Part shown: positions 42,046 through 64,000 of the stretch, piece after piece | Layout of the letters: each line of letters begins with the position of its first letter | Position numbering within the stretch: position 1 is the first letter of the stretch | Assembly (NCBI GenBank): GCA_965226555.1 | Contig: CBDDDG010000010.1 | Location: 352,001-416,000, forward strand | Length of the DNA stretch: 64,000 nt | Direction of reading: 5' to 3' | From: Salinispira sp. | Lineage (GTDB): Bacteria > Spirochaetota > Spirochaetia > DSM-27196 > Salinispiraceae | Notes under the pieces: generated by a model | What the model was told of the DNA's origin: nothing | Database searches by the model: none | Seen by the model: only the letters and a program-made list of their open reading frames with translations | Made by a program: the position numbers and the translations under genes

Positions 42046-44272
42046 ATGAGAATCAAATTTATGGGGGGGGGGGGGGGTAACTCTCCTCGCATTCTGCTCA
42101 ATGTTTATTGCATTGATGGCGGGATGTCCAATGCCGGAACCGGTGGTGGAACCACCCCCGCCGGGCACAATGGATGCCCCAAATCTTGAAGCGGGAGATG
42201 AGCAACTCATTGCAACATGGACTGCGCCAACAAACACCGGCGGCAGCGAAATTACCGGCTATGAGCTGCAATATAGCTCAGACGGCGGAACCACATGGTC
42301 GGATCCTCCTATTGAAGTCGCCGTGCCCGCCACAAAGACCATCATCACCGGCCTAATCAACGGCAGCAGTTATGAAGTACAGGTACGCGCACGGAACAGC
42401 GCGGGCGCAGGCGGCTGGTCGGACAGCGCATTAGCAAGCCCTGTTGCCGTTCCCCATGCTCCCGACTTGCCAACTCTTGAACCGGGAGATGGGCAACTCA
42501 TTGCGACATGGACTGCGCCGAGCAACGGCGGAAGCGCCATTACCGGCTATGAGCTGCAATATAGACAATATAGCGCAGACGGCGGAACCACATGGTCGGA
42601 TCCTCCTATTGAAGTCGCCGCGCCAGCCGCAAAGACCATCATCACCGGCCTAATCAACGGCAGCAGTTATGAAGTACAGGTACGCGCCGTCAACGCGCAG
42701 GGCGCAGGCGGCTGGTCGGACAGCGCATTAGCAAGCCCTGTTGCCGTTCCCCATGCTCCCGACTTGCCAAGCCTTACCGTGGAAAATGAGCAACTTCGCA
42801 TTTCATGGGCAGCGCCGACCAACACCGGCGGCAGCGACATTACCGGCTATGACCTGCGCTACGCACTAAACAATTCACCCCTGCCGGACGATCCGCAAAT
42901 TAGCAACACAAGCAATACCTCTCATACCATTATGCAACTGGAAATTGGCAGCCGCTACACCGTACAGGTGCGCGGCATCAACGCGCAGGGCAGGGGTTCG
43001 TGGTCAGAATCCGCAGCGAAAACATTCCCGCTCATTGCGACACAGGTGCCGGAGGGTACGGAGGTCTTTGTCATTCTTTCGACTGTTGACAACGCAATTG
43101 CCAATGCCGCAAACCCAAACATTACTGTGGTTCCGGTTACTTCCCCGGCATTAACGGTCGTCTTGCCGACAATTGATGCGGCTACCGGAATTATTATGGT
43201 TACCGCAAGCACAAGTCCCGGAACATATACGGTATCGGGCGCAGACGGAGGAAGCGAACTGTTCACCCCCGAAAAGTTCTCTGTTACCCTGAGTCCTCCT
43301 ACTAACGTTGCACTGAAAACAGCGGTAACTAATGGAATATCAAACTGGGGACAAACTGCCGACCTCAACTACATTCTTACTACGGCAATAACGGACATGT
43401 CCGAAGTGTTCAAAGATAAAACCGCATTCAATGGAAATATCTCGGGTTGGAATGTCAGCGCTGTAACAGATATGTCGGGGATGTTCCGTGGCGCAGGCGT
43501 ATTCAATGGAAATATCTCGGGCTGGACTGTCAGCGCGGTAACAGATATGTCGAGAATGTTCTACAACGCAGACGCATTTAATGGCGATATCTCGGGCTGG
43601 ACTGTCAGCGCGGTAACGGATATGTCCTATATGTTCAGTGGCGCAGTCGCATTCAATCGTGATCTTAATAATTGGACTGTCAGCGCTGTAACGGACATGT
43701 CGGGGATGTTCTACAACGCAGACGCATTCAATGGAAATATCTCGGGATGGACTGTCAGCGCGGTAACGGATATGTCGGGGATGTTTACTAACACATATGT
43801 ATTCAGTGGTAACATTTCCGGATGGGATGTCAGTTCGGTAACGGATATGTCGGGGATGTTCACTGCCGCAGGCGCATTCAATGGCGACATCTCCGGTTGG
43901 GATGTCAGTAAGGTAACGAATATGAGCAATATGTTCAATAACGCAGCATTCAATGGCAACATTTCCGGTTGGGATGTTAGTTCGGTAACGACTATGTATT
44001 CTATGTTCTTTTTTGCAAGCGCATTCAATGGCAACATCTCTAGCTGGGATGTCAGCTCGGTAACGAATATGTCCAGTATGTTCTTGTTTGCAAGCGCATT
44101 CAATCAGAATCTTACTGCATGGGGCGGGACAGATGCAGGGAGCTTACGGCGTGATCCTAATGATAATAGCAAATATGGAGTAACGGTAACGAATATGTTT
44201 ACGAGTTCCGGCGTTGTGGATACCGGGGGCGTGGGTGTTCCCAATTGGTATACTGAGATTATTGCCTATTAA
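42046..44272 (+). CDS. Surface lipoprotein L2: 3 FN3 + 10 DUF285/BspA repeats; frameshifted at a G15 tract in the signal peptide
   Basis: GAGGAG RBS + ATG 42046 (MRIKFM), G15 at 42063-42077 puts it 1 nt out of frame with ...VTLLAFCSMFIALMAGC lipobox; ORF 42101-44272. Confidence 0.88.
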
Positions 44273-44377: not shown

Positions 44378-44392
44378 GACGGAGATACTACC

Positions 44393-44444
44393 AAAGTTTT
44401 GCTACTGGAAATTGTGCAAGCACAATTTTCCAATGCAAAACTTT
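44393..44444 (+). repeat. Palindromic element P6 (52 bp) in the rpsD leader
   Basis: AAAGTTTTGCTACTGGAAATTGTGCAAGCACAATTTTCCAATGCAAAACTTT. Confidence 0.92.
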
Positions 44445-44471
44445 CTACGCAATAGGTTGAGGAGCATTACA

Positions 44472-49940: not shown

Positions 49941-50230
49941 GAAACTTTTGCATAAAGCAAAAGTTTCCGATCTGGAATGCTTTCTTTGTGCTTAGCATTC
50001 TCCAATTTTATAGAAAGTTTTGCATTTTGCAAAACTTTGTAATAGGAACAAAGTTTTGCTACTGGAAATTGTGCAAGCACAATTTTCCAATGGTCTGAAA
50101 AAATTTGTTGGGGAAATTCTGGGGGATTCACATGGGATTGACTGCCGTAAAAATATTGAGTATGCTAAGTGCATAACAAACTTTGGCTACTGGAAATTGC
50201 GCAAGCGCAATTTTCCAATGCAAAAGTTTC
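49941..50230. repeat. Cluster of three palindromic elements P7 (49941-50039, minus), P8 (50050-50092), P9 (50178-50230)
   Basis: Same hairpin and spacer sequences as the other copies. Confidence 0.9.
50138..50166 (+). promoter_or_regulatory. Putative sigma70 promoter of L3
   Basis: TTGACT-17 nt-TATGCT. Confidence 0.55.
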
Positions 50231-50257
50231 TGTCATGAACTTTCAGGAGGAATTATC

Positions 50258-52031
50258 ATGAAAATTAATTTTGATTTTATCCGTTTACCAAAAATTGTTT
50301 TTGCGTTTACGGTTTGTTCTGTGTTTATTGCGCTGCTTGCCGGATGTCCGATGCCGGATTCGCCCCCTGCCATGTTCGCGCCGACCCTCGAAGCGGGGGA
50401 ATGGACAACTGACTGCCACATGGGTCGAGCTGGCAGCTATATGGAATGCGGTAGACGACAAGGATGGCAAAAACGTCATTACCTCGTATAATCTGCGTTA
50501 CAGTGAAGTTGGTAGTGGAAGCTGGACGGAGATCACCTCCGGTATTACCGGCGCAAGCCATACCATTAGCGAGCTGATAAACGGCGTCAGTTACTCCGTG
50601 CAGGTGCGCGCCGTCAACGCGGGAGGTGCGGGCACGTGGTCAGCATCGTCCACGGCAACACCTATTGCTTCCCTTCCTGCCGCGTTGGCTGCTCCCACCC
50701 TTGTTGCGGGAGACGGTCAACTGACCGTTACATGGACAGCGCCGACTGATACCGGCGGCAGCGACATTAGCGCATACCACCTGCGTTATAGGGAAGACGG
50801 CAGCGGAAGCTGGGAAATTATTACCGAAGGCATTGACGGTACAAGCCACGTCATTAGCGACCTGACAAACGGCACTGTCTATGAGGTACAGGCGCGAGCG
50901 ATCAACGCGGACGGAGGAATTGGCGCATGGTCGGAATCTGCCGTTTCAACTCTCCCTGCCCTTGCCACTGTTCCTGACGCGCCGGTTGCCCCAACCCTTT
51001 ATGCGGGCACTGGGCGGATCGTTGCGAGATGGTCTGCGCCGGAAGACAACGGCAGCGCCATTACCGGGTATGAATTGCAGTATCGCATAGGCGGCGGAGC
51101 ATGGACGGAAATTACCGAAGGCATCACCGACACAGACCACACCATGACAAACCTGACAAACGGCATTGTTTACGGAGTACAGGTGCGTGCTGTCAATGCA
51201 GTCGGCACTGGCCCATGGTCTGCGCCCGTAGCGGGAACGCCACTATTTTCTCCGACACAGACTCCCTCGGGTGAGGGAAAATCTATAAGCCTTTCGGTTG
51301 CCCAGAATGCCCTTACTAATGCCATTATTGCCAATGAGAACCTCAGCGTTTCTTTGACGACGGGCACTTACACGGTCAATGGAGGAGACCTTATGGTAAC
51401 CACCGTAACTCCGCCCGGAACGGTCACCATTCCGACAGTTAATGCGAGTACCGGAATTGTTACGGTTACCGCGAGTACAACGGCAGGAACATATGTAGTA
51501 TATGGTGAAACCGAAAGCGGAGACATACTCTTTGCCGAATATCTCTATGTTACCGTGAGTCCTACTACTAACGCTCAACTGAAAACAGCGGTAACTACCT
51601 GGGGCGATACTGCCGATTTCAACTACATTATTACCACTGCGGTAACGGATATGTCCACTGTTTTCAAGGGTAAGACCGCATTCAATGGCGATATCTCGCT
51701 CTGGGATACTACAGCGGTAACGACTATGTACGAAATGTTCCGTGCTACAAACGCATTCAATGGCGATGTCTCAAGATGGGATGTCAGTTCGGTAACGAAT
51801 ATGGGCTATATGTTCTATGGAACAGGTGTGTTCAATGGCGATATCTCCGGCTGGGATGTCAGTTCGGTAACAGATATGCCCTCTATGTTCCATTTCGCAA
51901 TCACATTCAATCAGAATCTTGAGGCGTGGAAGGAACATTTGACGCTTGATGGCAATGGCAAATATACTGGAGATAAAACGATTATGTTTTGGGGTTCCGG
52001 CTTGGACGGTAATGAGCCGTCATGGTATTAG
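50258..52031 (+). pseudogene. Surface lipoprotein L3: 3 FN3 + 4 DUF285 repeats, +1 frameshift at G5
   Basis: AGGAGG RBS, ATG 50258, lipobox LLAGC; GGGGG at 50395-50399 versus GGGG at 54795-54798 in the near-identical paralog L4. Confidence 0.85.
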
Positions 52032-52475
52032 TTTCATAACCCATAGCCCGTAGCGGCTATTGAAACGCGGCAATTCAACTCAGGCAGGCGCGGGGCTGGT
52101 CGCGCCTGCCTTTTTTCGATCAAGTGACGGCGTTGCGCGCCTGCACGCCCAAGCATCCGGCTCGCCATGCGGCGGGATCAGGTTAATATCCCAAAATAAT
52201 AAAACTTTTTACAAAAATTTCCCATTTTGTCATACACTATTCATATTTTACCCGTCTATATGGTATGGGGAAAAAATATATCGGTATGGTACATGACAAA
52301 AGCTGGAAATATGTTTTCGGGAATGCTCAGATATTCAGGGATTTCATATATTCATACTTCAACAAAGACCTCGCGCTGAGCATTGTTCCCGGGAGTATGC
52401 TGAGCATCAACCCTGAATTTATCCACAAAGGCGAACTCAGGCATTCCATCTCCGATGTCATTTACAAAACTACGT

Positions 52476-53815
52476 GAAACCTTTGAATAACTCCATTATA
52501 TCTGCCGGTAGTCTTTTTTCCACGCAGAAAAAATTATTCATCGTTTTTCACGTTATTCTCTTCAGCATCCTCCGTCTTTTTTCGGCGCGATACGCGCTAT
52601 ATTCGTTCTTTTTTTCATCTTTTTTCAGTATTTCCCTCATTTCCGGCAGCAGTACCGCCATAAGGGCACAGCTATCCTGTTGTTATGCCGCAACCGCAGA
52701 GTTTTCCGGCGCCATGTTCCCCATTCGCCGTTTCATGCCGATCATCTGTTTCAGATTATACATAATCGCCATACACATAAACCGACTCTGATTCCTCTGA
52801 ACTCCCATATACCGCGCCTTTCTTGCGCCGCAATGGAGTTTGCTCAGACCAAAAAACCGCTCCACCGTATTCCTTACGCGCGACCGCCCGTAATTCGCCT
52901 GCTTCTGTTCATCGGTTAACGGTGTGTTCCGATACGCCCGCTCATGTATTTGATTCTCTATGCCCATCTCCTCAAGCATCGCAGCAATCGCTTTACTCCG
53001 GTACGCGGCATCCGCGTACACCACCGTCTCATTTCCCATAATCAATTCGCCAAATAGTTTGCTGTCATGAATATTGGCCGCAGTCACCAGCAGTTTCTTC
53101 GCCCGTCCCTTCTCATTTACCGTCACGTGTATCTTGAAACCGTAGGTTGTTCGTACCGTTCCATCGCCTCCCTTCTTACTCGCGTAGGCCGCTTCAGGAT
53201 CCTGTGTCGATTCTCCTGCGTCATTTTTTTTCTTCCGATGCCGCGAAGCCTGTATCACACTCGCATCAATTATGCTGACTGTGCCCCGGTGCACTTCACA
53301 ATCCTGCGTGTCCAACTGCGCATTCACCGTGTCCAAGAGCGCGCTGAGAATATTCTTACGGGTCAGTTGTTCCCGAAACCGCCATATCGTGGAATGATCG
53401 GGAGTTTCGTCGAGAACATTGAGCCCCACAAAACGCTTGTATGCCAAGTCGCAGGCAAGCGCATTTTCCATGCCTTCATCGCTGAGATTCTGCCACGATT
53501 GCAGCAACAGCACTTTGAACATCATAACCGGATGATATCCTTTCGCGCCCATCGATTTGTTGTTGATAGCACAGAGCATCTCCCCAATTTCCTTCCAATT
53601 GATCAGTTCATACAGGCTATCGAAGCGTTTCAGCGCTTTACTTTCCTGAATACCCTGATTGATCAGCGATCCATGATGTTCTTTCCAATTATTTCCCATT
53701 GTGTTCTCCTGTTTCAGCGCCGGACAGCGCGCAATACAACCCGATTGCTCATTCCCAGCTCTCTGTGTGAATTTTCTTCAAAATACCATTATTCCCGATG
53801 ATGTGCAAAGGTTTC
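52476..53815 (-). mobile_element. IS5-family insertion sequence, 1340 bp
   Basis: Terminal IRs GAAACCTTTG / CAAAGGTTTC; TACGT duplicated at 52471-52475 and 53816-53820. Confidence 0.9.
52683..53699 (-). CDS. IS5-family DDE transposase
   Basis: MFKVLLLQSW.NLSD, PDHSTIWRFR, IIDAS, YGFKIH, YADAAY, R..VER.FG..K. Confidence 0.93.
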   Translation of the reverse strand: MGNNWKEHHGSLINQGIQESKALKRFDSLYELINWKEIGEMLCAINNKSMGAKGYHPVMMFKVLLLQSWQNLSDEGMENALACDLAYKRFVGLNVLDETPDHSTIWRFREQLTRKNILSALLDTVNAQLDTQDCEVHRGTVSIIDASVIQASRHRKKKNDAGESTQDPEAAYASKKGGDGTVRTTYGFKIHVTVNEKGRAKKLLVTAANIHDSKLFGELIMGNETVVYADAAYRSKAIAAMLEEMGIENQIHERAYRNTPLTDEQKQANYGRSRVRNTVERFFGLSKLHCGARKARYMGVQRNQSRFMCMAIMYNLKQMIGMKRRMGNMAPENSAVAA

Positions 53816-53875
53816 TACGTGCCGTTTCAAAGATAGCGCGCGGAAACCGAAACCGCTCGATGTCTACTTTATCAC

Positions 53876-54000
53876 CAAAGTTTTGCCACAGGCAAAACTT
53901 TCTAAAAATAGGAGAATGCTAAGCACAAAGAAAGCATTTCGAATCTGAAACTTTTGCTACTGGAAATTGCGCACGCGCAATTTTCCAATGCAAAAGTTTT
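53876..54000 (+). repeat. Composite palindromic element P10 inside rpn type B
   Basis: Short hairpin + spacer 1 + long hairpin; separates YFI from IEFQS codons. Confidence 0.9.
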
Positions 54001-54110
54001 GTATTGAATTTCAGTCGACAGTGGATAACACCATGCCAGGGAGAATATACACATACGCCCAGCGCTTATCCGAACGCATTTCCTCATCGGGAAAGAAGAA
54101 AACCGATAAT

Positions 54111-54209
54111 AAAGTTTTGCCTCAGGCAAAACTTTCTATACCTTGAGAGAATCAAGAGTATAGATGAGAGAATCCTTATTTGAAAATTTTGCAGAGCAAA
54201 ATTTTCAGT
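54111..54209 (+). repeat. Composite palindromic element P11 (spacer type 2) inside rpn type B
   Basis: AAAGTTTTGCCTCAGGCAAAACTTT...TGAAAATTTTGCAGAGCAAAATTTTCA. Confidence 0.85.
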
Positions 54210-54505
54210 TACCGGATAATCACCCTTGTGATATACACCTGCTCGGGAGCGCCAATGATCAATTCTGACCCGCGCACGATCGATTTTCTGTCATTACCAT
54301 ACACAAGCAGTCTGATATCAGAATATTTTCAGATCAATGTTGAGAATTTCAGCAACGAGGAACTAATTTCCGTCGGCGGAGTCATTTCAGCGATAATGTA
54401 TATTGAGAATCTTGGAACAATAGAAGAATACACAGAAGAAACAATCGTCATCCTCAACAATATGATACAGAATAAGATGTCCGAAGATAAAGATGTATTA
54501 TATGA

Positions 54506-54630
54506 CAAAGTTTTGCCTCAGGCAAAACTTTCTATAAAGTGCGAGAATGCTCCGCACATAAAAGTATTCCAAATGAGAAACTTTTGCTACTGGAAATTGT
54601 GCAAGCACAATTTTCCAATGCAAAAGTTTC
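54506..54630 (+). repeat. Composite palindromic element P12 joining rpn type B to the L4 leader
   Basis: Short hairpin + spacer 1 variant + long hairpin. Confidence 0.9.
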
Positions 54631-54657
54631 TGTCATGAACTTTCAGGAGGAATTATC

Positions 54658-56409
54658 ATGAAAATTAATTTTGATTTTATCCGTTTACCAAAAATTGTTT
54701 TTGCGTTTACGGTTTGTTCTGTGTTTATTGCGCTGCTTGCCGGATGTCCGATGCCGGATTCGCCCCCTGCCATGTTCGCGCCGACCCTCGAAGCGGGGAA
54801 TGGACAACTGACTGCCACATGGGTCGAGCTGGCAGCTATATGGAATGCGGTAGACGACAAGGATGGCAAAAACGTCATTACCTCGTATAATCTGCGTTAC
54901 AGTGAAGTTGGTAGTGGAAGCTGGACGGAGATCACCTCCGGTATTACCGGCGCAAGCCATACCATTACCGAGCTGATAAACGGCGTCAGTTACTCCGTGC
55001 AGGTGCGCGCCGTCAACGCTGGGGGCAGGGGTGCGTGGTCAGCATCGTCCAAGGAAACGCCTCTTGCTTCCCTTCCTGCCGCGCTGGCTGCTCCCACCCT
55101 TGTTGCGGGAGACGGTCAACTGACCGTTACATGGACAGCGCCGACTGATACCGGCGGCAGCGACATTAGCGCATACCACCTGCGCTATAGGGAATATGGC
55201 AGCGGAAGCTGGGAAATTATTACCGAAGGCATTGACGGTACAAGCCATGTCATTAGCGACCTGACAAACGGCACTGTCTATGAGGTACAGGCGCGAGCGA
55301 TCAACGCGGACGGAGGAATTGGCGCATGGTCGGAATCTGCCGTTTCAACTCTCCCTGCCCTTGCCACTGTTCCTGACGCGCCGGCTGCCCCAACCCTTTA
55401 TGCGGGCACTGGGCGGATCGTTGCGAGATGGTCTGCACCGGAAAATAACGGCAGCACCATTACCGGGTATGAGCTGCGATATCGCATAGGCGGCGGAGCA
55501 TGGACGGAAATTACCGAAGGCATCACCGGTACATACCACAGCATTACCGGGCTCACAAACGGCTCCCCCTACGGAGTACAGGCGCGTGCCGTCAATGCAG
55601 TCGGCGCTGGACCATGGTCTCCATTTACAATAGGAAGGCCGCTACTACTAAGGACACAGACTCCTGCGGGTACGGCAAGGGTTGTAAGCCTTTCGGATGC
55701 CGTTAATGTTATTATTGCCAGTGAGAACCTCAGCGTTTCTTTGACGACGGGCACTCACGCGGTCAATGGAGGAGACCTTATGGTAACCACCGTAACTCCG
55801 CCCGGAACAGTCACCCCGCCGATAGTTGATGCGAGTACCGGACTTGTTACGGTTACCGCAAGTACAACGGCAGGAACATATCTGGTATATGGCACTACTG
55901 GAACCGGAGATACACTCCTGTTTGCCGAATATTTCTACGTTACTGTGACTCCTCACGATGGCGATGGTAGTGCTGGTGTTGCTAATACTGATGGCGGTAA
56001 CGATGAACTGGACGCCGCGGTAGCTACGGGGATATCAACATGGGGCAATACTGGCGATTTCAACTACATTATTACCACGGCAGTAACGGATATGACCGAG
56101 GTTTTCTCAGGTAAATCCACATTCAATGGCGATATTTCCGGCTGGGATGTCAGCTCGGTAACGACTATGAACAGTATGTTCCAGTTTGCATCCGTTTTCA
56201 ATATCGATATCTCCGACTGGGATGTCAGTTCGGTAACGAATATGACCGGTATGTTCAATTTAGCAACTGCATTCAATCAAGATCTTGAGGAGTGGAAGGA
56301 TCATTGGACACTTGATGTCAATGGCAAATATACCGGAGTCAAAACCAATATGTTTAAGGATTCCCGCGTAATAGCTACCGGGGGTGTTGGTATGCCGTCA
56401 TGGTATTAG
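54658..56409 (+). CDS. Surface lipoprotein L4: 3 FN3 + 3 DUF285 repeats (intact)
   Basis: AGGAGG RBS, lipobox LLAGC, FN3 motifs, PSWY end; 5' half nearly identical to L3. Confidence 0.92.
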   Translation: MKINFDFIRLPKIVFAFTVCSVFIALLAGCPMPDSPPAMFAPTLEAGNGQLTATWVELAAIWNAVDDKDGKNVITSYNLRYSEVGSGSWTEITSGITGASHTITELINGVSYSVQVRAVNAGGRGAWSASSKETPLASLPAALAAPTLVAGDGQLTVTWTAPTDTGGSDISAYHLRYREYGSGSWEIITEGIDGTSHVISDLTNGTVYEVQARAINADGGIGAWSESAVSTLPALATVPDAPAAPTLYAGTGRIVARWSAPENNGSTITGYELRYRIGGGAWTEITEGITGTYHSITGLTNGSPYGVQARAVNAVGAGPWSPFTIGRPLLLRTQTPAGTARVVSLSDAVNVIIASENLSVSLTTGTHAVNGGDLMVTTVTPPGTVTPPIVDASTGLVTVTASTTAGTYLVYGTTGTGDTLLFAEYFYVTVTPHDGDGSAGVANTDGGNDELDAAVATGISTWGNTGDFNYIITTAVTDMTEVFSGKSTFNGDISGWDVSSVTTMNSMFQFASVFNIDISDWDVSSVTNMTGMFNLATAFNQDLEEWKDHWTLDVNGKYTGVKTNMFKDSRVIATGGVGMPSWY

Positions 56410-56665
56410 TTTCATAGCCCCCAGCGGCTATTGAAAAATGGCAATTCAACTCAGGCAGGCAGCGGATTGTTCCGCCACCTGCCTTTTTTCGATAAGACGG
56501 CTGGTCGGCGTTCCGCGCCTTCTGCTCGCCCAAGCATGAGGCTCGCCATGCGTCCGGGCTGATCGGAGGCTTACGCCTCCTGGGCTGGTCGGCGTTGCAC
56601 GCCTGCTCGCCCAAGCGTCCGGCTCGCCATGCGTCTGGATCAGGTTAATATCTCAAAATAATAAA
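56408..56665 (+). repeat. GC-rich repeat R downstream of lipoprotein genes (other copies about 52030-52205, 58305-58437 rc, 61545-61678 rc, partial 36988-37038)
   Basis: ATAGCC-N6-GGCTAT hairpin, CAATTCAACTCAGGCAGGC, GGCTGGTCG...CTGCTCGCCCAAGCAT...CGCCATGCG. Confidence 0.8.
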
Positions 56666-56720
56666 AATAATTACAAAAATTTCTCATATTCACCGTTCAT
56701 ATTTTACCCGTCTATATAGT

Positions 56721-56845
56721 ATGAGCAAAAAGTATATCGGCATGGTACACGCTGGAAATATGCTTTTGAAAATCCCCTGATATTCAGGGACTTCATATAC
56801 TCATATTTCAACAAGGACCTCGCGCGGAGCATTGTTCCCGGGAGC
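56721..56845 (+). pseudogene. 5' fragment of type B rpn gene
   Basis: Degenerate copy of 52265-52395 (MSKKYIGMVH...FRDFIYSYFNKDLARSIVPGS) with a small deletion. Confidence 0.7.
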
Positions 56846-57070
56846 GTGCGTCAATACACCCTATAATACAGGGCGAATTCAACCATACGCTCACCCCGCA
56901 TTCCCGAGCCCTCTCCCTCCGAAAAAAATTCACACATTTTGCAAATTTTTTCCAAAAACACAATAAAAAATGACAGTTTACCCGTCACAGATATAGAGGA
57001 GAGAATTCACCATGGGACCATGTCGCCATGGGAGCTCCCCTATTCAGAAAGAAACGTTCAGGAGGATTGT

Positions 57071-58170
57071 ATGATCGATTTCAAAGAAAAACCCACCCCC
57101 GTTCCCTACGACCAAGGATACCGCTCCCTGCTGTTCCAACCCGCAATAATGCTCCAATTTCTTCAACGCTTTGTCGGAGGCGCATGGACGAAAAAACTGC
57201 GAACCGAGGACATAACCATTGAAAACGGTACCTTTTTCATCGACCATGCGAAAACACGGATGGCCGACATCGTCTGCAAAATCAGAACTCGGGATCACAC
57301 GGGAGATGTTGTCATTTATGTGCTCCTTGAGCATCAGTCTGGAGTGGACAAAGACATGCCCCTCCGCATGTCGGAGTACACGAATCTGCTCTATCGGAAC
57401 ATTCATCGCTCCGGAGCAATTCCCGATGACTGCGAGTTGATATTTCTGCCCATTGTGTTCTATAATGGTACACGAAAATGGAAGGTGCCCGGGAATGTCA
57501 GAGAGCAACGGAAGCGGGAATTCCCGCAGTATCTTGCCCCCTTTCCCTACGATCTGATAAGTGAGAACGATTATTCTGCGGAGCAGTTGCAGCAGCGGGG
57601 AAGAATGTTTGCGGCTGTTATGTACCTTGATCTGTACTCGAAAAATCTGCTGAATACGGATTGGGACATTCAGAAGACGGAGAAAGCGATAGCAGAAATG
57701 CTGAATGAGGAATCGCTGGAGCTGATAGAGGAATTTGTCGGCGTGGTAGATTCTATGTTCGGAATTGTTATAGATTTAGATACGTTAATGAACCGATTAG
57801 AAGCAAAGTTTTGCCAGAGGCAAAACTTTCTATAAAATTGGAGAATGCTAAGCACAAAGAAAGCATTCCGAATTTGAAACTTTTGCTACTGGAAATTGTG
57901 CTTGCACAATTTTCCAATGCAAAAGTTTCAGAAAGAACAAAAGAACCGAGAGGTAAGGAGGTAGCAAAAATGTTCAGAATGAATGCGGAAACATTCAGAG
58001 CGCGCATTGCGGAGATGGGTCGGCAGGAAGGCCGCGCTGAGGGGCATATTGAGGAGCGGAGAAAAAACGCCCGCAGTATGTTTTTGGAAGGGTTGTCGAC
58101 CGAGGCTGTTCAGAGAATTACCGGGCTGAGCGATGAGGAAATGCGGACATTGCGGAACGGATCGCATTAA
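57071..58170 (+). pseudogene. Rpn/YhgA-like nuclease (type A, copy 1) disrupted by a palindromic element; C-terminal small ORF 57970-58170 intact
   Basis: AGGAGG RBS + ATG 57071; YDQGYRSL, ADIVCKI, YVLLEHQS.VD.DMPLRM..Y, PIVFYNG..KW; insertion about 57803-57929 relative to copy 2. Confidence 0.88.
57803..57929 (+). mobile_element. Composite palindromic element P13, MITE-like insertion in rpn type A copy 1
   Basis: Absent from paralog near 61100-61125; AGAA on both sides (57799-57802, 57930-57933). Confidence 0.88.
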
Positions 58171-58502
58171 TTGACGTTGCTCGGCCTGCGCGCTAAAACT
58201 TTTGAGGAAGCGGAATACCGATGTGGATAGTGGTATTCTCCGTCGCGGATGCTTCAGGGACTGTACGTTTATTCTGTCAAAACCCCGTCAAAAAGTTTCT
58301 ATTGTTTTGGGATATTACTATTTGATCAGCCCGGACGCATGGGCGAGCAATCGAAAAAAGGCAGGCACGGGGGCTGGTCGGCGCCCCGCGCCTGCCTGAA
58401 TTGCCATTTTCCAATAGCCGCTGGGGGCTATGAAACTACTACTCATACCATGATGGATACGCTGTCGTCTTGCCAGGTCCCACATCGGAAAAACTAAACA
58501 TA

Positions 58503-59497
58503 AGCCCGTGTGAGGGTTTTTTGTGTAGTGGCTTGAAAAAAGAGCACCTATTCCCGTAAAGTATTAAAAAAACCTTACACCAAACGGGAGGGAAAGGTGC
58601 TCAGAGAGGATTTTATCATAGAAATGTTCTGTATGATAAGTGATTGGATGAAAATGAATAAAAATAGTATGGAACGGTTGCGATCACGCGGGCCGAAACC
58701 AAAACTTGGCGATGATGAGGTGTTAACCATGGGAATTGTTGGTGAGTTTTTCGGTATTGATACCGACAAAGGTATTCATCGGTATTTTGTCGAGCATTGG
58801 AGAACTCTCTTTCCACATATTGGACATCGGACGGCCTATGTCCGTCAATCAGCGCATCTCTGGCGGATTAAACAGGAACTTCACAAATACATCACGCAAA
58901 CATTGATCTCACAGAGTGCTCCGGTCTATTGCGTTGACGGATTTCCTCTGCCCCTGTGTAATTTCCGCAGAGCGAATCGTTGCAGACTATTCAAAAGTCA
59001 GGCATCGTATGGATTTTGCGCGGCAAAAAACATGCATTATTATGGGTTTAAGGGACATATTCTGATAACCGCCGATGGGCTGATTATCGACTATACTCTT
59101 ACCCCCGCGAATGTCGATGAGAGAGAAGCGGCGGAAGATTTCTGTAACAGTATGCAGGGAATGCTTTTAGGCGATAAGGGATACATTGGCAAAGCGCCGT
59201 TCTTTGCGGAACACAATATCGCACTTGAAACACCCGTGAGAAAAAATATGAAACAGATACACAGCCCTGAGCAGATGAGCTGGATGATGAATACCCGAAG
59301 AATAATTGAAACGGTTATCAGCCAGTTATCAGAACGATTTCATATTCAAAAAATACGGGCGCGGGATATATGGCATTTCACATCCCGATTATGGAGAAAA
59401 CTCCTCGCTCACACTATGGCAGTGTATTTGTGTAAAAAGCATTGCAATTCATGGTTAGAATTTAGACATTTATGCGGTTAAAACCCTCACACGGGCT
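58503..59497 (+). mobile_element. IS982-family insertion sequence, 995 bp
   Basis: 18-bp IRs AGCCCGTGTGAGGGTTTT / AAAACCCTCACACGGGCT; AAACATA duplicated at 58496-58502 and 59498-59504. Confidence 0.92.
58597..59481 (+). CDS. IS982-family DDE transposase
   Basis: PKLGDDEVLTM, VDGFPLPLC, YYGFKGH, LGDKGYIG, RRIIETVISQL. Confidence 0.92.
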   Translation: MLREDFIIEMFCMISDWMKMNKNSMERLRSRGPKPKLGDDEVLTMGIVGEFFGIDTDKGIHRYFVEHWRTLFPHIGHRTAYVRQSAHLWRIKQELHKYITQTLISQSAPVYCVDGFPLPLCNFRRANRCRLFKSQASYGFCAAKNMHYYGFKGHILITADGLIIDYTLTPANVDEREAAEDFCNSMQGMLLGDKGYIGKAPFFAEHNIALETPVRKNMKQIHSPEQMSWMMNTRRIIETVISQLSERFHIQKIRARDIWHFTSRLWRKLLAHTMAVYLCKKHCNSWLEFRHLCG

Positions 59498-59532
59498 AAA
59501 CATATCTGCTTTGCTTCCGGTATATGGCACTA

Positions 59533-59853
59533 TTATCCTTGTCCGTTTTTCTGAAATGCCTGAATCTCATCTTCACTGAGATCGGTGTACTTATGAATAC
59601 GGTCTATCGACAGACCATCCTTAAGCATTTTAAGTACCTGCTCACGTTGGGTTCGATCATGTTCACGCTGGAGCTCAGCACGCCCCTGCTCAAGACCCTC
59701 AATCCGGCCCTTCGCAATGCCTTCCCTGACAAAGGCGTTGGTAATATTATATGTCCGCATACTGTTTTCTCCTTCAGGATATAATTCCCTGTCAATTTTC
59801 TCAAACTGTTCATACAGTCTGTTCATACAGTTTTGGATCTAGATCTTTGATAC
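59533..59853 (-). pseudogene. 3' part of a type B rpn gene; contains intact small ORF 59760-59533 (75 aa, RpnS-like)
   Basis: GAAGGAG RBS before MRTYNITNAFVREGIAKGRIEGLEQG...KMLKDGLSIDRIHKYTDLSEDEI, a typical Rpn C-terminus. Confidence 0.8.
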
Positions 59854-59854
59854 C

Positions 59855-59978
59855 GAAAATTGTGCTCCGCACAATTTTCTAATCTGGATTCTCTCATCTC
59901 TATTCGTGATTCTCTCAAGATATAGAAAGTTTTGCTACTGAAAAATTGTGCAGAGCAAAATTTTCAGTAGCAAAACTC
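59855..59978 (-). repeat. Composite palindromic element P14 (spacer type 2)
   Basis: Reverse-complement similarity to P11, with a long hairpin at 59926-59977. Confidence 0.85.
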
Positions 59979-60030
59979 TGTAATAAAACTTTCTCATATT
60001 CACCATTCATATTTTACCCGTCTATATAGT

Positions 60031-60155
60031 ATGAGCGGAAAATATATCGGAATGGTACACGCTGGAAATATGCTTTCGAAAATCCCCGGATATTCCGGAA
60101 CTTCATATACTCCTACTTCAACAAGGACCTCGCGCGGAGCATTGTTCCCGGGAGC
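60031..60155 (+). pseudogene. Second 5' fragment of type B rpn gene
   Basis: Near-identical to 56721-56845. Confidence 0.7.
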
Positions 60156-60383
60156 GTGCGTCAATACACCCTATAATACAGGGCGAATTCAACCATACGC
60201 TCACCCCGCATTCCCGAGCCCTCTCCCTCCGAAAAAAATTCACACATTTTGCAAATTATTTCCAAAAACACAATAAAAAATGACAGTTTACCCGTCACAG
60301 ATATAGAGGAGAGAATTCACCATGGGACCATGTCGCCATGGGAGCTCCTCCCCTATTCAGAAAGAAACGTTCAGGAGGATTGT

Positions 60384-61412
60384 ATGATCGATTTCAAAGA
60401 AAAACCCGCCCCCATTCCCTACGACCAGGGATACCGCTCCCTGCTGTTCCAACCCGCAATAATGCTTCAATTTCTTCAACGCTTTGTCGGAGGCGCATGG
60501 ACGAAAAAATTGCGAATCGAGGACATAACCATCGAAAACGGTACCTTTTTCATCGATCATGCGAAAACACGGATGGCCGACATTGTCTGCAAAATCAGAA
60601 GTCGGGATCACACGGGAGATGTTGCTATCTATGTGCTCCTTGAGCATCAGTCCGGCGTGGACAAAGACATGCCCCTCCGCATGTCGGAGTATACGAATCT
60701 GCTCTATCGGAACATTCACCGCTCTGGAGCAATTCCCGATGACTGTGAATTGGTATTTCTTCCCATTGTGTTCTATAATGGAACTCGAAAATGGAAGGTG
60801 CCGGGGAATGTCAGAGAGCAACGGAAGCGGGAATTCCCGCAGTATCTTGCCCCCTTTCCCTACGATCTGATAAGTGAGAACGATTATTCTGCGGAGCAGT
60901 TGCAGCAGCGGGGAAGAATGTTTGCGGCTGTTATGTACCTTGATCTGTACTCGAAAAATCTGCTGAATACGGATTGGGACATTCAGAAGACGGAGAAAGC
61001 GATAGCAGAAATGCTGAATGAGGAATCGCTGGAGCTGATAGAGGAATTTATCGGCGTGGTAGATTCGATGTTCGGAATTGTTATAGATTTAGATACGTTA
61101 ATGAACCAGTTACAAAGAACAAAAGAACCGAGAGGTAAGGAGGTAGCGAAAATGTTCAGAATGAATGCGGAAACATTCAAAGCGCGCATTGCGGAAATGG
61201 GTCGGCAGGAAGGATTGCAGACAGGACTGCGAACAGGTCGTGAAGAAGGACTTCAAAAGGGGCTACAGGCAGGCCGCGCTGAGGGGCATATTGAGGAGCG
61301 GAGAAAAAACGCCCGCAGTATGTTTTTGGAAGGGTTGTCGACCGAGGCTGTTCAGAGAATTACCGGGCTGAGCGATGAGGAAATGCGGACAGTGCGGAAC
61401 GGATCGCATTAA
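60384..61412 (+). CDS. Rpn/YhgA-like PD-(D/E)XK nuclease (type A, copy 2), intact, with nested small ORF 61152-61412
   Basis: AGGAGG RBS + ATG 60384; Rpn motifs as copy 1; (x-x-x-G)n repeats and ITGLSDEE C-terminus. Confidence 0.9.
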   Translation: MIDFKEKPAPIPYDQGYRSLLFQPAIMLQFLQRFVGGAWTKKLRIEDITIENGTFFIDHAKTRMADIVCKIRSRDHTGDVAIYVLLEHQSGVDKDMPLRMSEYTNLLYRNIHRSGAIPDDCELVFLPIVFYNGTRKWKVPGNVREQRKREFPQYLAPFPYDLISENDYSAEQLQQRGRMFAAVMYLDLYSKNLLNTDWDIQKTEKAIAEMLNEESLELIEEFIGVVDSMFGIVIDLDTLMNQLQRTKEPRGKEVAKMFRMNAETFKARIAEMGRQEGLQTGLRTGREEGLQKGLQAGRAEGHIEERRKNARSMFLEGLSTEAVQRITGLSDEEMRTVRNGSH

Positions 61413-61675
61413 TTGACGTTGCTCGGCCTGCGCGCTAAAACTTTTGAGGAAGCGGAATACCGATGTGGATAGTGGTATTCTCCGTCGCGGATGCTTCAGG
61501 GACTGTACGTTTATTCTGTCAAAACCCCGTCAAAAAGTTTCTATTATTTTGAGATATTACTATTTGATCAGCCCGGACGCATGGGCGAGCAATCGAAAAA
61601 AAGGCAGGCACGGGGGCTGGTCGGCGCCCCGCGCCTGCCTGAGTTGAATTGCAATGTTTCAATAGCCGCTGGGGG

Positions 61676-63986
61676 CTATGGAGCTTCCCACCAGCTCGGC
61701 TCACTACCCGACAAGCCGGAATTGATGAACATACCTGCCCTCGATCCTTTATATTTGCCATCATTACCCCAGTTAGCATTACCCCATGGCATCGTCGTAT
61801 CCGGATTTGTTGCCCATGCGTCAATATTTTTATTGAATGCGGCTGCGTAACTGAACATATATGCCATATTCGCTACCGAACTGACATTCCAGCCAGAGAT
61901 ATCTTGATTGAATACGGCTGCGTAACTGAACATAGTGGACATATTCATTACCGAACTAACATCCCAGCTTGAGATATCGTGATTGAATATGATTGCATTA
62001 CGAAACATATGGCTCATATCCTCTACCGCGTCAGTACTCCAACCGGAGATATTGGCATTGAATACGTCTGCGCTATTGAACATAGCGGACATATTCATTA
62101 CCGAACTGACATCCCAGCCGGAGATATCGCTACTGAATGTGTCTGCGTTACTGAACATAGTGGACATATTCATTACCGAACTGACATCCCAGCCGGAGAT
62201 ATCCCCATTGAATGAACTTTTATTCTTGAACACCTCGGACATATCCGTTACTGCCGTGGTAACAATGTAGTTGAGATCGGCAGTTTGTCCCCAATTACTT
62301 ATTCCCGCAGCTACCGCGGCATCCAGTTCATCATTACCGCCATCATCATTAGCATTACCGCCAGCAGCAGTAGCATCGTTAGGACTCACGGTAACATAAA
62401 AATACTCGGCAAACAGTAGCGCATCTCCGGTTCCAATGCCATATACCACATATGTTCCTGCCGTTGTATCCGCAGCAACGGTAATAACTCCGGTACTCGC
62501 ATCAACTGTCGGCAAGGTGGCTCCTGCGGGCGCAGTTGCGGGGGGAGTGACCGCCGTAATGTCTCCTGATCCATCGACCGTGAGCGTGTTCGATTCTATT
62601 GTGGTCAATGAAACGGTTGGATTCTGATTGGCAATAATGGTATCAATATCAGCTGAAAGAATTGCGGAGGCTGCCGTACCCGCGGGAACCTGCGTTGCAA
62701 TAATCGGCACCATTGCTGTTGCGGGTTCAGACCACGGCCCATCGCCCTGCATGTTGACAGCGCGCACCTGTACTTCGTACGAAGTGCCGTTTGTCAGGCC
62801 TGTGATGGTGTGGCTTGTGCCAGTGACGCCGGAGCTTTCCGTCCATGTGGTTCCGCCGTCTGAGCGATATTGCACCTTATACCCGGTAATGGCACTGTCT
62901 CCAACATCGACTGGCGCTGTCCATGAGGCGTTAAGCTGGGTGTTTCCGGCTGTGAGTATGAGACCTGTCGGCGCATCGGGAACGGCAATTGGGGTTGCTG
63001 TGGTACTGTCCGACCAGTCGCCTGCGCCCGCGCTGTTCACGGCGCGCACCTGTACGACGTACGCGGTGCTGTTTGTGAGGGCTGTGATGGTGTGGTTTGT
63101 GCCGGTGATTTCGGATGCTTCAATTAATGTCCATGAGGTTCCGCCGTCCGAGCTATATTGCAGCTCATACCCGGTAATGGCCGTGCCTCCGTTATCAGTC
63201 GGTGGCGCAGCCCAGTTAACGACAAGCTGCGCATTTCCTACGTCAATAGTGGGAGCAGCGGGCGCGGCGGGAGCAACATCGGGAGTTGCTGTTCCCACTA
63301 TTGGGTTTCCATTTCCCTGCTCATTGACAGCGTATACCTGTACTTCGTACGAAGTGCCGTTTGTTAGTCCGGTAATTTCGAGAGTCAGAGTAGCGCCATT
63401 GGGGGTTGCAATGGGGTTTGGCGTCCACGCGTCGTGTGTTCCTGCTATGCGATGCTGTGCTTCATAACGAAGGATAGAGCTGCCGCCAATGTCGGTCGGC
63501 GCAGTCCATGCTGCGGTAAGTTGGTCATCTCCCACTGTGAGAACGAGATTAGTCGGCGCCATGGGAACAGTAACAGGGGTTGCGGAGGTAGATGATGGCG
63601 ACCATGCGCCCGCTCCCACATCGTTGACAGCGCGCGCCTGTACTGTGTACGGGGTACCGTTGTCCAGCCCCATAATGTCGTGGCTTGCGGCTGAAGCGGC
63701 GATTACATCGGTAACCTCCGTCCAGTTGGTACCGCCGTCCGTGCTATGACGCAGGTTGTACGCGGTAATGGCGCTGCCGCCATTGCTGGTCGGCGCAACC
63801 CATGTAACAGTTACTTGCCCGTTCCCTGCTGTGAGGGTTGGAGCAAGCATTTCACCCGGGGATGTTGCAGTATCACCCGGTACTGGTGTTGGTTCCGGCA
63901 TTGGACATCCAGAAATCAACATAATAAACATTGAGCAGAGAATGAAAAGGGTTACCCCCCCCCCAACTGTATGTCGTAATTTTCAT
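61676..63986 (-). CDS. Surface lipoprotein L5: 4 FN3 + 6 DUF285 repeats; frameshifted at a G10 tract in the signal peptide
   Basis: AGGAGGT RBS + ATG 63986 (MKITTYSW), G10 (C10 at 63955-63964) is 1 nt out of frame with VTLFILCSMFIMLISGC; ORF 63931-61676. Confidence 0.88.
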
Positions 63987-64000
63987 ATATGTTACCTCCT

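Follow-up and report, generated by a model that had tools for sequence, protein, structure and literature searches.

Why do nuclease genes of the rpn family stand directly behind lipoprotein genes, and what carried them there? The question is raised by a 64,000-nucleotide stretch of a Salinispira sp. assembly (positions 352,001 to 416,000 of contig CBDDDG010000010.1; G000:C10:352001-416000 in our numbering), referred to here as the window. At its positions 49941 to 64000, lipoprotein genes with fibronectin type III (FN3) and DUF285 (PARCEL) domains lie among rpn genes, a trailer repeat termed R and a palindromic element termed P. An earlier note on this DNA proposed that the Rpn nucleases act on the hairpins of P and, together with R, shuffle adhesin genes in the manner of repetitive extragenic palindromes (REP) and their associated tyrosine transposases (RAYT). 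On balance, we favor a different answer: the rpn modules found behind half of the lipoprotein genes are likely toxin-antitoxin systems, and they probably spread by ectopic recombination through the trailer that these genes share.

All counts come from this one genome (2.98 Mb in 26 contigs, 93.5% complete), in which the census of rpn and lipoprotein genes was taken with iterated hidden Markov models. The bacterium looks spirochaete-like: among 21 loci compared, the best match to its RpsD comes from a Spirochaetaceae metagenome-assembled genome, at 55%. The roles given to Rpn and to its predicted antitoxin, RpnS, are read from sequence.

Lipoprotein genes and the rpn genes behind them

Genome-wide, lipoprotein and rpn genes are coupled far beyond chance. 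A co-oriented rpn gene lies within 1 kb downstream of 54 of the 108 DUF285 open reading frames (ORFs), and an opposite-strand one behind a single ORF (1/108); the figures for other ORFs are 31/1352 and 41/1352, a contrast with a p-value of about 1e-45. Among genes that are last in their unit, rpn stands behind 53/85 lipoprotein genes and 31/782 others, and a DUF285 gene heads 54 of the 132 rpn clusters. Insertion sequence (IS) copies lie behind 6/109 lipoproteins and 22/1373 other genes and thus show no such bias, which indicates that lipoprotein ends are not general traps for junk.

The trailer R has three parts: R1, the terminator-bearing lipoprotein trailer; Q, a short GC-rich repeat; and R3, which covers the 5' end of clade-C rpn together with the region ahead of it. 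R is found at 160 loci, and rpn stands behind 45/59 genes with R1 vs 9/39 without it. Multi-motif Q loci number 105, mostly after lipoprotein or rpn stops, with some inside P and an IS. Since Q lies within some P elements and within copies of a second IS5-type transposase (C11:63371, C10:539527 and others), it may be a separate small mobile repeat.

The 79 intact rpn genes fall into at least five clades, and five clades occupy the first position behind lipoproteins. Truncated clade-C stubs precede the younger clades, with ragged left junctions, and variable ends and nested stubs were seen upstream of 48 clade-A starts among the matches listed. This could be neutral hitchhiking, in which an ancestral lipoprotein-rpn pair was amplified in a repeat-rich, IS-laden genome, the rpn genes being antiphage or selfish passengers and the link having no function. 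The setting would suit such a history: repeats of at least 400 bp and 90% identity make up 517 kb of the 2.98 Mb, there are 80 IS copies, over half of the 257 ORFs with the rpn nuclease part are fragments (107 are near-full), and tandem rpn arrays with variable ends are known (Zhong et al., 2023, PMC10400941). However, the rpn copies are far younger than the lipoproteins ahead of them. One 39-copy clade stays together at 80% identity, with 37 or 39 copies together at 90%, while no two of the 98 FN3+DUF285 lipoproteins are 90% identical and the nearest neighbor has a median identity of 66%. Occupation of one site by five clades also argues against a simple inherited pair, as does the weak tie between trailer presence and lipoprotein relatedness (nearest-neighbor concordance 0.61-0.66 vs 0.51-0.52). 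Finally, the coupling arose again in a second lipoprotein family of 33 genes with Y-D-x-x-G repeats (examples at C25:25457-27106, C23:7074-8501 and C10:164233-165705), which has its own trailer and rpn behind 6/33 genes, 5 of the 6 belonging to clade E. We therefore rate hitchhiking as unlikely.

Further arrangements were noted in passing. A coiled-coil repeat family starting MAELTVQEIKDM (C14:256985-257992 and paralogs) is followed by rpn in 4/6 cases. Arrays of a unit made of a DUF285 3' fragment, trailer and rpn occur at C14:144406-147345 and C10:308494-310411, and the displaced lipoprotein C-termini in them are unlike the local upstream gene.

In 30 relatives, Transposase_31 has 0-6 matches and DUF285 0-14. 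In the two richest in DUF285, rpn is not adjacent to DUF285 among the matches listed, and searches for relatives of the rpn loci and of L4, a lipoprotein gene of the window, yielded none. A protein named from a Salinispira sp. metagenome-assembled genome matches clade-D rpn.

The rpn genes as predicted toxin-antitoxin modules

Elsewhere, rpn genes have been shown to encode a toxic nuclease (RpnL) and a nested antitoxin (RpnS), to vary in 4-residue repeats that set specificity and to be capable of blocking phage (Zhong et al., 2023, PMC10400941). The genes studied here carry the corresponding hallmarks. An in-frame Shine-Dalgarno sequence (SD) and ATG lie within the last 135 codons of 74/79 intact rpn genes vs 48/1373 controls, and the lengths of predicted RpnS follow 4-residue steps in 27/28 clade-A and 30/31 clade-B copies. 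Nearly every copy has its own version: the 75 intact genes in clades A, B, D and E yield 74 distinct predicted RpnS. The C-terminal part is present in 174 ORFs, and the nuclease part is under purifying selection, with a ratio of non-synonymous to synonymous polymorphism (pN/pS) of 0.19-0.39.

The Rpn proteins of the window match PF04754 at 65-68 bits (cut-off 21); TIGR01784 scores 43.8 bits, under its cut-off of 52.1. With catalytic residues taken from RpnA (PMC5350276), the protein encoded at 60384-61412 shows catalytic-type D14, D66 and E87-H-Q, and clade-A copies carry YDQGY and LEHQS in 30/30 cases and MADIV in 27/30. A sequence search of the PDB returned nothing meaningful. The rpn genes here are likely gene-in-gene toxin-antitoxin modules. 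The earlier note had drawn on a view of Rpn as recombination-promoting DNases; that activity is indeed reported, as discussed below, but the view as a whole has been superseded by the toxin-antitoxin work (PMC10400941).

The systems of Zhong et al. (PMC10400941) share with ours the Transposase_31 nuclease with D...D...E-x-Q, the internal SD and ATG, the 4-residue variation, stand-alone rpnS copies, and tandem arrays whose ends vary and lack terminal repeats. They differ in scale: a high example there has 26 rpn, whereas the single 3-Mb genome studied here holds 132 clusters, with 79 genes intact. They differ too in setting, since the present genes, known from their sequence, are tied to lipoprotein 3' ends and not to defense islands.

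Mosaic lipoproteins and the route of spread

The lipoproteins score 95-404 bits against PF03382, and a lipobox-like motif is present in 78/98 by a strict pattern and in several more by eye. They are mosaics. Every one of the 98 shares an identical 40-mer with a paralog (median 12 paralogs); a match at one end of a pair is never accompanied by a match at the opposite end (0/17 of those matched at the 5' end, 0/13 at the 3' end); and 65/78 ends of lipoprotein-containing duplications lie within coding sequence. Shuffling and tandem 25-residue repeats are documented for PARCEL lipoproteins (Roske et al., 2010, PMC2996958), and the present family resembles those in its repeats, its many paralogs, its intragenomic shuffling and the mobile elements nearby, but it is fused to 3-4 FN3 domains and has a conserved trailer and rpn behind it. 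The available part of PMC12478362 makes no mention of Rpn, transposase or fibronectin.

Does the nuclease itself drive this exchange? Freed RpnL might nick or cut near its own locus, with repair from paralogous loci converting the lipoprotein and copying rpn, as a homing-like drive. Such an engine would fit the report that RecA-independent recombination is promoted by Rpn, whose cuts leave ends able to prime a polymerase (PMC5350276), as well as the second lipoprotein family with its own trailer and mostly clade-E rpn. It would also fit the greater mosaicism of rpn-linked lipoproteins, which have a median of 0.46 of their length in shared 40-mers vs 0.32 for the others (p 0.004; weaker at 60-mers), pair sharing being 0.177 for linked-linked and 0.095 for unlinked-unlinked pairs. 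Yet an intact rpn within 2.5 kb makes no difference to mosaicism (25 vs 73 lipoproteins, p 0.38), and the excess in linked genes is spread over all four gene quarters and is not significant at 100-mers (p 0.20). Unlinked lipoproteins are mosaic too, and shared downstream homology alone predicts the excess. An active engine of this kind therefore seems quite improbable to us.

We consider it fairly probable, instead, that homology in the trailer, rpn, FN3 and PARCEL sequences, replacement of one rpn clade by another and private antitoxins acted together. An ancestral unit of lipoprotein, trailer and rpnC would have left a conserved landing pad behind each lipoprotein that bears the trailer. The clades that came later (A, B, D and E) may then have been patched into the rpnC stub with variable ends, while units of lipoprotein 3' end, trailer and rpn were added in tandem. 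Lipoprotein segments would be exchanged by homologous recombination within the FN3 and PARCEL repeats, with trailer and rpn offering extra homology for the exchange. A private antitoxin variant would make a module costly to lose and so would retain both the rpn copy and the adjacent lipoprotein locus. The hairpin likely supplies junctions only occasionally.

Several observations weigh against this account. More than half of the rpn clusters (78/132) are not behind a DUF285 gene, and 54/108 DUF285 ORFs have no rpn behind them. Q lies on both sides of only 10/132 clusters, so there are no clean cassette ends. Of the near-full nuclease ORFs without the C-terminus (28 examined), 6 are not followed by an RpnS and another 2 are interrupted inside it, one of them by P-like sequence. 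Gene copies are not independent, and the p-values are therefore overstated. The assembly has a contamination figure of 6.67%, and no read or contig spans the locus, contigs of four sequencing runs having been compared, so that gene order rests on the assembly.

Two candidate vehicles were considered and rejected: a Q-bounded pop-in cassette, given how rarely Q flanks a cluster, and an autonomous rpn transposon or cassette, given the same rarity and the variable left junctions. With regard to the assembly, dnaA and gyrB each occur twice (C1:1-4583 and C12:172383-177034), in agreement with the contamination figure. In sequencing run X1, single-copy genes have a depth of about 4.8, IS5 52, IS982 39 and rpnA bins 290-850; the IS depths agree broadly with the assembled copy numbers (IS5 11, IS982 6), and the repeats are thus genuine multi-copy DNA. 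A related strain was found in run X4 (a cave metagenome) and short pieces in X6 (a sponge metagenome), and the bacterium may be host-associated.

The arrangement also recalls more distant systems. As with Rhs/CdiA orphans, intact genes here have displaced 3' ends of lipoprotein genes and stubs of rpn behind them, and as in superintegron cassettes, toxin-antitoxin pairs lie beside a variable gene repertoire. Unlike in those systems, however, we found no site-specific recombinase or attC-like fixed ends, and of 174 rpn stops only about 9 run into the 3' piece of a lipoprotein gene (5 identified by BLAST, the others by eye).

A bolder version, which we think rather unlikely, is that a spirochaete of the symbiont type has put Rpn toxin-antitoxin nucleases to work in driving its surface proteome. 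Private antitoxin codes, written as the number of 4-residue repeats, would accompany homing into the trailers behind two unrelated lipoprotein families, locking loci in place and stimulating segmental exchange. About 75 predicted Rpn toxins and almost the same number of distinct antitoxins form a natural library within one genome, with which the purpose of the repeat code (phage escape, self/non-self recognition among paralogs or selfish spread) can be tested directly, and toxin-antitoxin genes are suggested as keepers of a surface-protein repertoire of some hundred members. The components are all of known kinds. What appears new is the number of intact rpn genes (79) and their directional tie to lipoproteins, a literature search at the level of titles and abstract openings having returned no paper that ties rpn to DUF285 lipoproteins.

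The window and its palindromic element

The features of positions 49941 to 64000 are as follows.

49941-50107: P elements, a composite hairpin MITE (miniature inverted-repeat transposable element), directly after ligA
50177-50230: short-form P, at the start of L3/L4 identity
50258-52031, plus strand: L3, lipoprotein gene with three FN3 and DUF285 (PARCEL)
52030-52264, plus strand: trailer R, comprising R1 with terminator-like hairpin 52082-52111, the Q repeat and R3 (clade-C rpn upstream region)
52265-54504, plus strand: clade-C rpn pseudogene in pieces 52265-52476, 54003-54106 and 54210-54504, 3' end lost
52476-53815, minus strand: IS5-family element, 1340 bp, with 5-bp target duplication; transposase 52683-53699
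53876-54206: two P in clade-C rpn, separated by 104 bp of the rpn gene
54506-54630: chimeric P, left flank clade-C rpn, right flank L3/L4 upstream region (P x P junction)
54658-56409, plus strand: L4, intact lipoprotein gene with three FN3 and DUF285
56408-56845, plus strand: trailer R including several Q units; a 5' stub of clade-C rpn follows from 56723
57071-57803, plus strand: clade-A rpn nuclease part, ended by P
57804-57929: 126-bp P just upstream of the RpnS ribosome-binding site; paralogs have empty sites
57970-58170, plus strand: intact predicted RpnS antitoxin, 66 aa, SD at 57956
58200-58295: debris from the end of a second IS and from an IS481-like element; found again at 61442-61537
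58290-58438, minus strand: trailer R (R1 and Q, R3 truncated), tail-to-tail with rpnA
58439-59530, minus strand: displaced C-terminal remnant of a lipoprotein gene, adjoining the clade-B rpn stop and interrupted by IS982
58503-59497, plus strand: IS982-family element; transposase 58597-59481
59533-59826, minus strand: clade-B rpn 3' piece; intact predicted RpnS 59533-59760, 75 aa
59855-59980: chimeric P, with clade-B rpn (minus) on one side and R3 (plus) on the other, where the 59985-61680 duplication starts
60384-61412, plus strand: intact clade-A rpn, 342 aa; nested predicted RpnS 61152-61412, 86 aa, SD at 61138
61531-61682, minus strand: trailer R of L5, tail-to-tail with rpnA
61676-63931, minus strand: L5, lipoprotein gene with four FN3 and DUF285, 751 aa

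Much of the earlier description stands: three lipoprotein genes and a C-terminal remnant, two IS elements (IS5 at 52476-53815, IS982 at 58503-59497) and R behind each lipoprotein stop. Its eight palindromes are obtained if the composites at 49941-50107 and 53876-54206 are split, and its two rpn types become three clades (A, B and C). The clade-C gene at 52265-54504 is broken by IS5 and three hairpin elements, and further stubs of this clade lie at 56723 and 60033. Of the four lipoprotein-R-rpn links reported there, those at 52030 and 56408 are co-oriented, but the other two (58305 and 61545, reverse complement) are tail-to-tail with rpnA across IS debris; they represent one event duplicated (97% over 415 bp), in an orientation that is rare genome-wide (1/108). 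Identity between L3 and L4 does start inside the hairpins 50178/54578, running at 86-100% across the first 1 kb before divergence within coding sequence, and the 56675/59985 duplication does start right after hairpin 59855-59980. The 54506 and 59855 elements are chimeras, so these two junctions are real; as a rule for duplication boundaries, however, hairpins fail, since genome-wide 1/78 ends of lipoprotein-containing duplications falls in P.

P occurs at 400 loci (48 kb), and for 107 of these an empty paralogous site was found. Perfect 5-bp repeats flank 64/374 elements vs 2.6 in shuffled data (44/158 vs 1.7 for de-duplicated simple elements), and 39/59 filled/empty pairs gain 5 bp. The IS5 of the window has ends GAAACCTTTG, and 5/6 full IS5 copies have 5-bp duplications, with the T...A bias also seen for P. 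P ends match that IS5 at 10 or more of 12 bases in 277/748 cases, vs 2 for the second IS5 type and 0 for six other IS families. That IS5 is thus likely the mobilizer of P, judging from these footprints, and P would be a MITE; an abundant hairpin repeat is thereby linked to an identified transposase of its own genome. Against this assignment, 13/59 filled/empty pairs gain 4 bp, and the 5-bp flanks of 102/158 simple P have at least two mismatches. Copy-to-copy recombination and composite ends may account for the imperfect flanks. The mismatches adjoin the element (left positions 4-5, right 1-2) and often match P internal sequence, possibly through conversion among P modules.

Like other IS-moved MITEs (PMC11602168), P combines a length of 50-150 bp, terminal inverted repeats and a target duplication with hundreds of copies, in a phylum, the Spirochaetes, where such elements are abundant. 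It departs from the usual form in that each end is itself a hairpin (predicted window hairpins fold with z of about -8), in modules that recombine into composites of up to 590 bp and in several insertion sites that precede the RpnS start by 12-36 bp, in four rpn clades. The P pattern has 184 matches in its own genome and 0 in 7 genomes of the family, with 4 unrelated single matches in genome contigs and 0 in metagenome contigs.

REP/RAYT and REPIN/BIME elements are inverted hairpin pairs around a spacer and occur genome-wide. P shares the hairpin pairs but differs in having a 5-bp duplication and no Y1 HUH transposase partner: PF01797 has 0 matches in the 93.5% complete genome, the control having matched 6/14. 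Rpn, unlike RAYT, is a PD-(D/E)XK protein whose gene the hairpin disrupts. The analogy was therefore rejected, the known elements inserting without duplication, and with it a RAYT/Y1 partner for P. Retroposition was rejected as well, there being 0 reverse transcriptase (PF00078) matches in the genome, and a tyrosine recombinase (3 PF00589 matches), an idea taken from the mismatches hugging the element, was dropped once the IS5 ends matched. ORFs between P pairs are mostly housekeeping genes or the IS481-like element, which has other ends.

The proposal that Rpn recognizes the hairpins is thus very improbable. It can point to the two chimeric P junctions, to 39/67 repeated P flanks with more than one partner flank (a number inflated by nested and composite elements) and to 185/400 P loci within 500 bp of rpn clusters, where total length would predict 45. 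When density is taken over dispensable DNA, however, rpn zones hold 0.59 P per kb, no more than other non-coding DNA with its up to 1.03 per kb, and the IS5-type ends, the duplications and the missing PF01797 stand against the proposal. E. coli RpnA was found by Kingston et al. (PMC5350276) to be non-specific, with no preference for extruded cruciform. The genome-wide co-localization that the earlier note suggested as a check does hold for rpn, lipoproteins and R; P, however, is not enriched upstream of lipoproteins (19/98 vs 111/805, p 0.17), and it is almost absent from lipoprotein ORFs (6/400).

Hairpins do not flank rpn genes but are inserted into them, as is the P at 57804-57929. It cuts the nuclease and spares a predicted RpnS of 66 aa, 20 residues shorter than the 86-aa one at 61152. 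Of 20 position bins of P sites in rpn, 18 lie upstream of the predicted RpnS start, and the insertion sites 12-36 bp upstream of it in clades A, B, D and E are independent. P carries a sigma-70-like match at 57811-57838, which could drive the orphaned antitoxin.

Some smaller observations concern the lipoprotein genes of the window. The G run at 50395-50399 has five G in L3 and four in L4, and the extra G shifts the signal peptide of L3 out of frame. An out-of-frame lipobox is seen at about six further full loci of the family; sequencing error, pseudogenes or phase variation are the alternatives. Remnants of two other IS families (IS481-like, 20 copies, and a 9-copy element) lie at 50088-50122, 58200-58295 and 61442-61537. 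A fourth FN3/DUF285 lipoprotein gene, without rpn behind it, is located at 42101-44272, and a short P at 44392-44445 stands just before rpsD.

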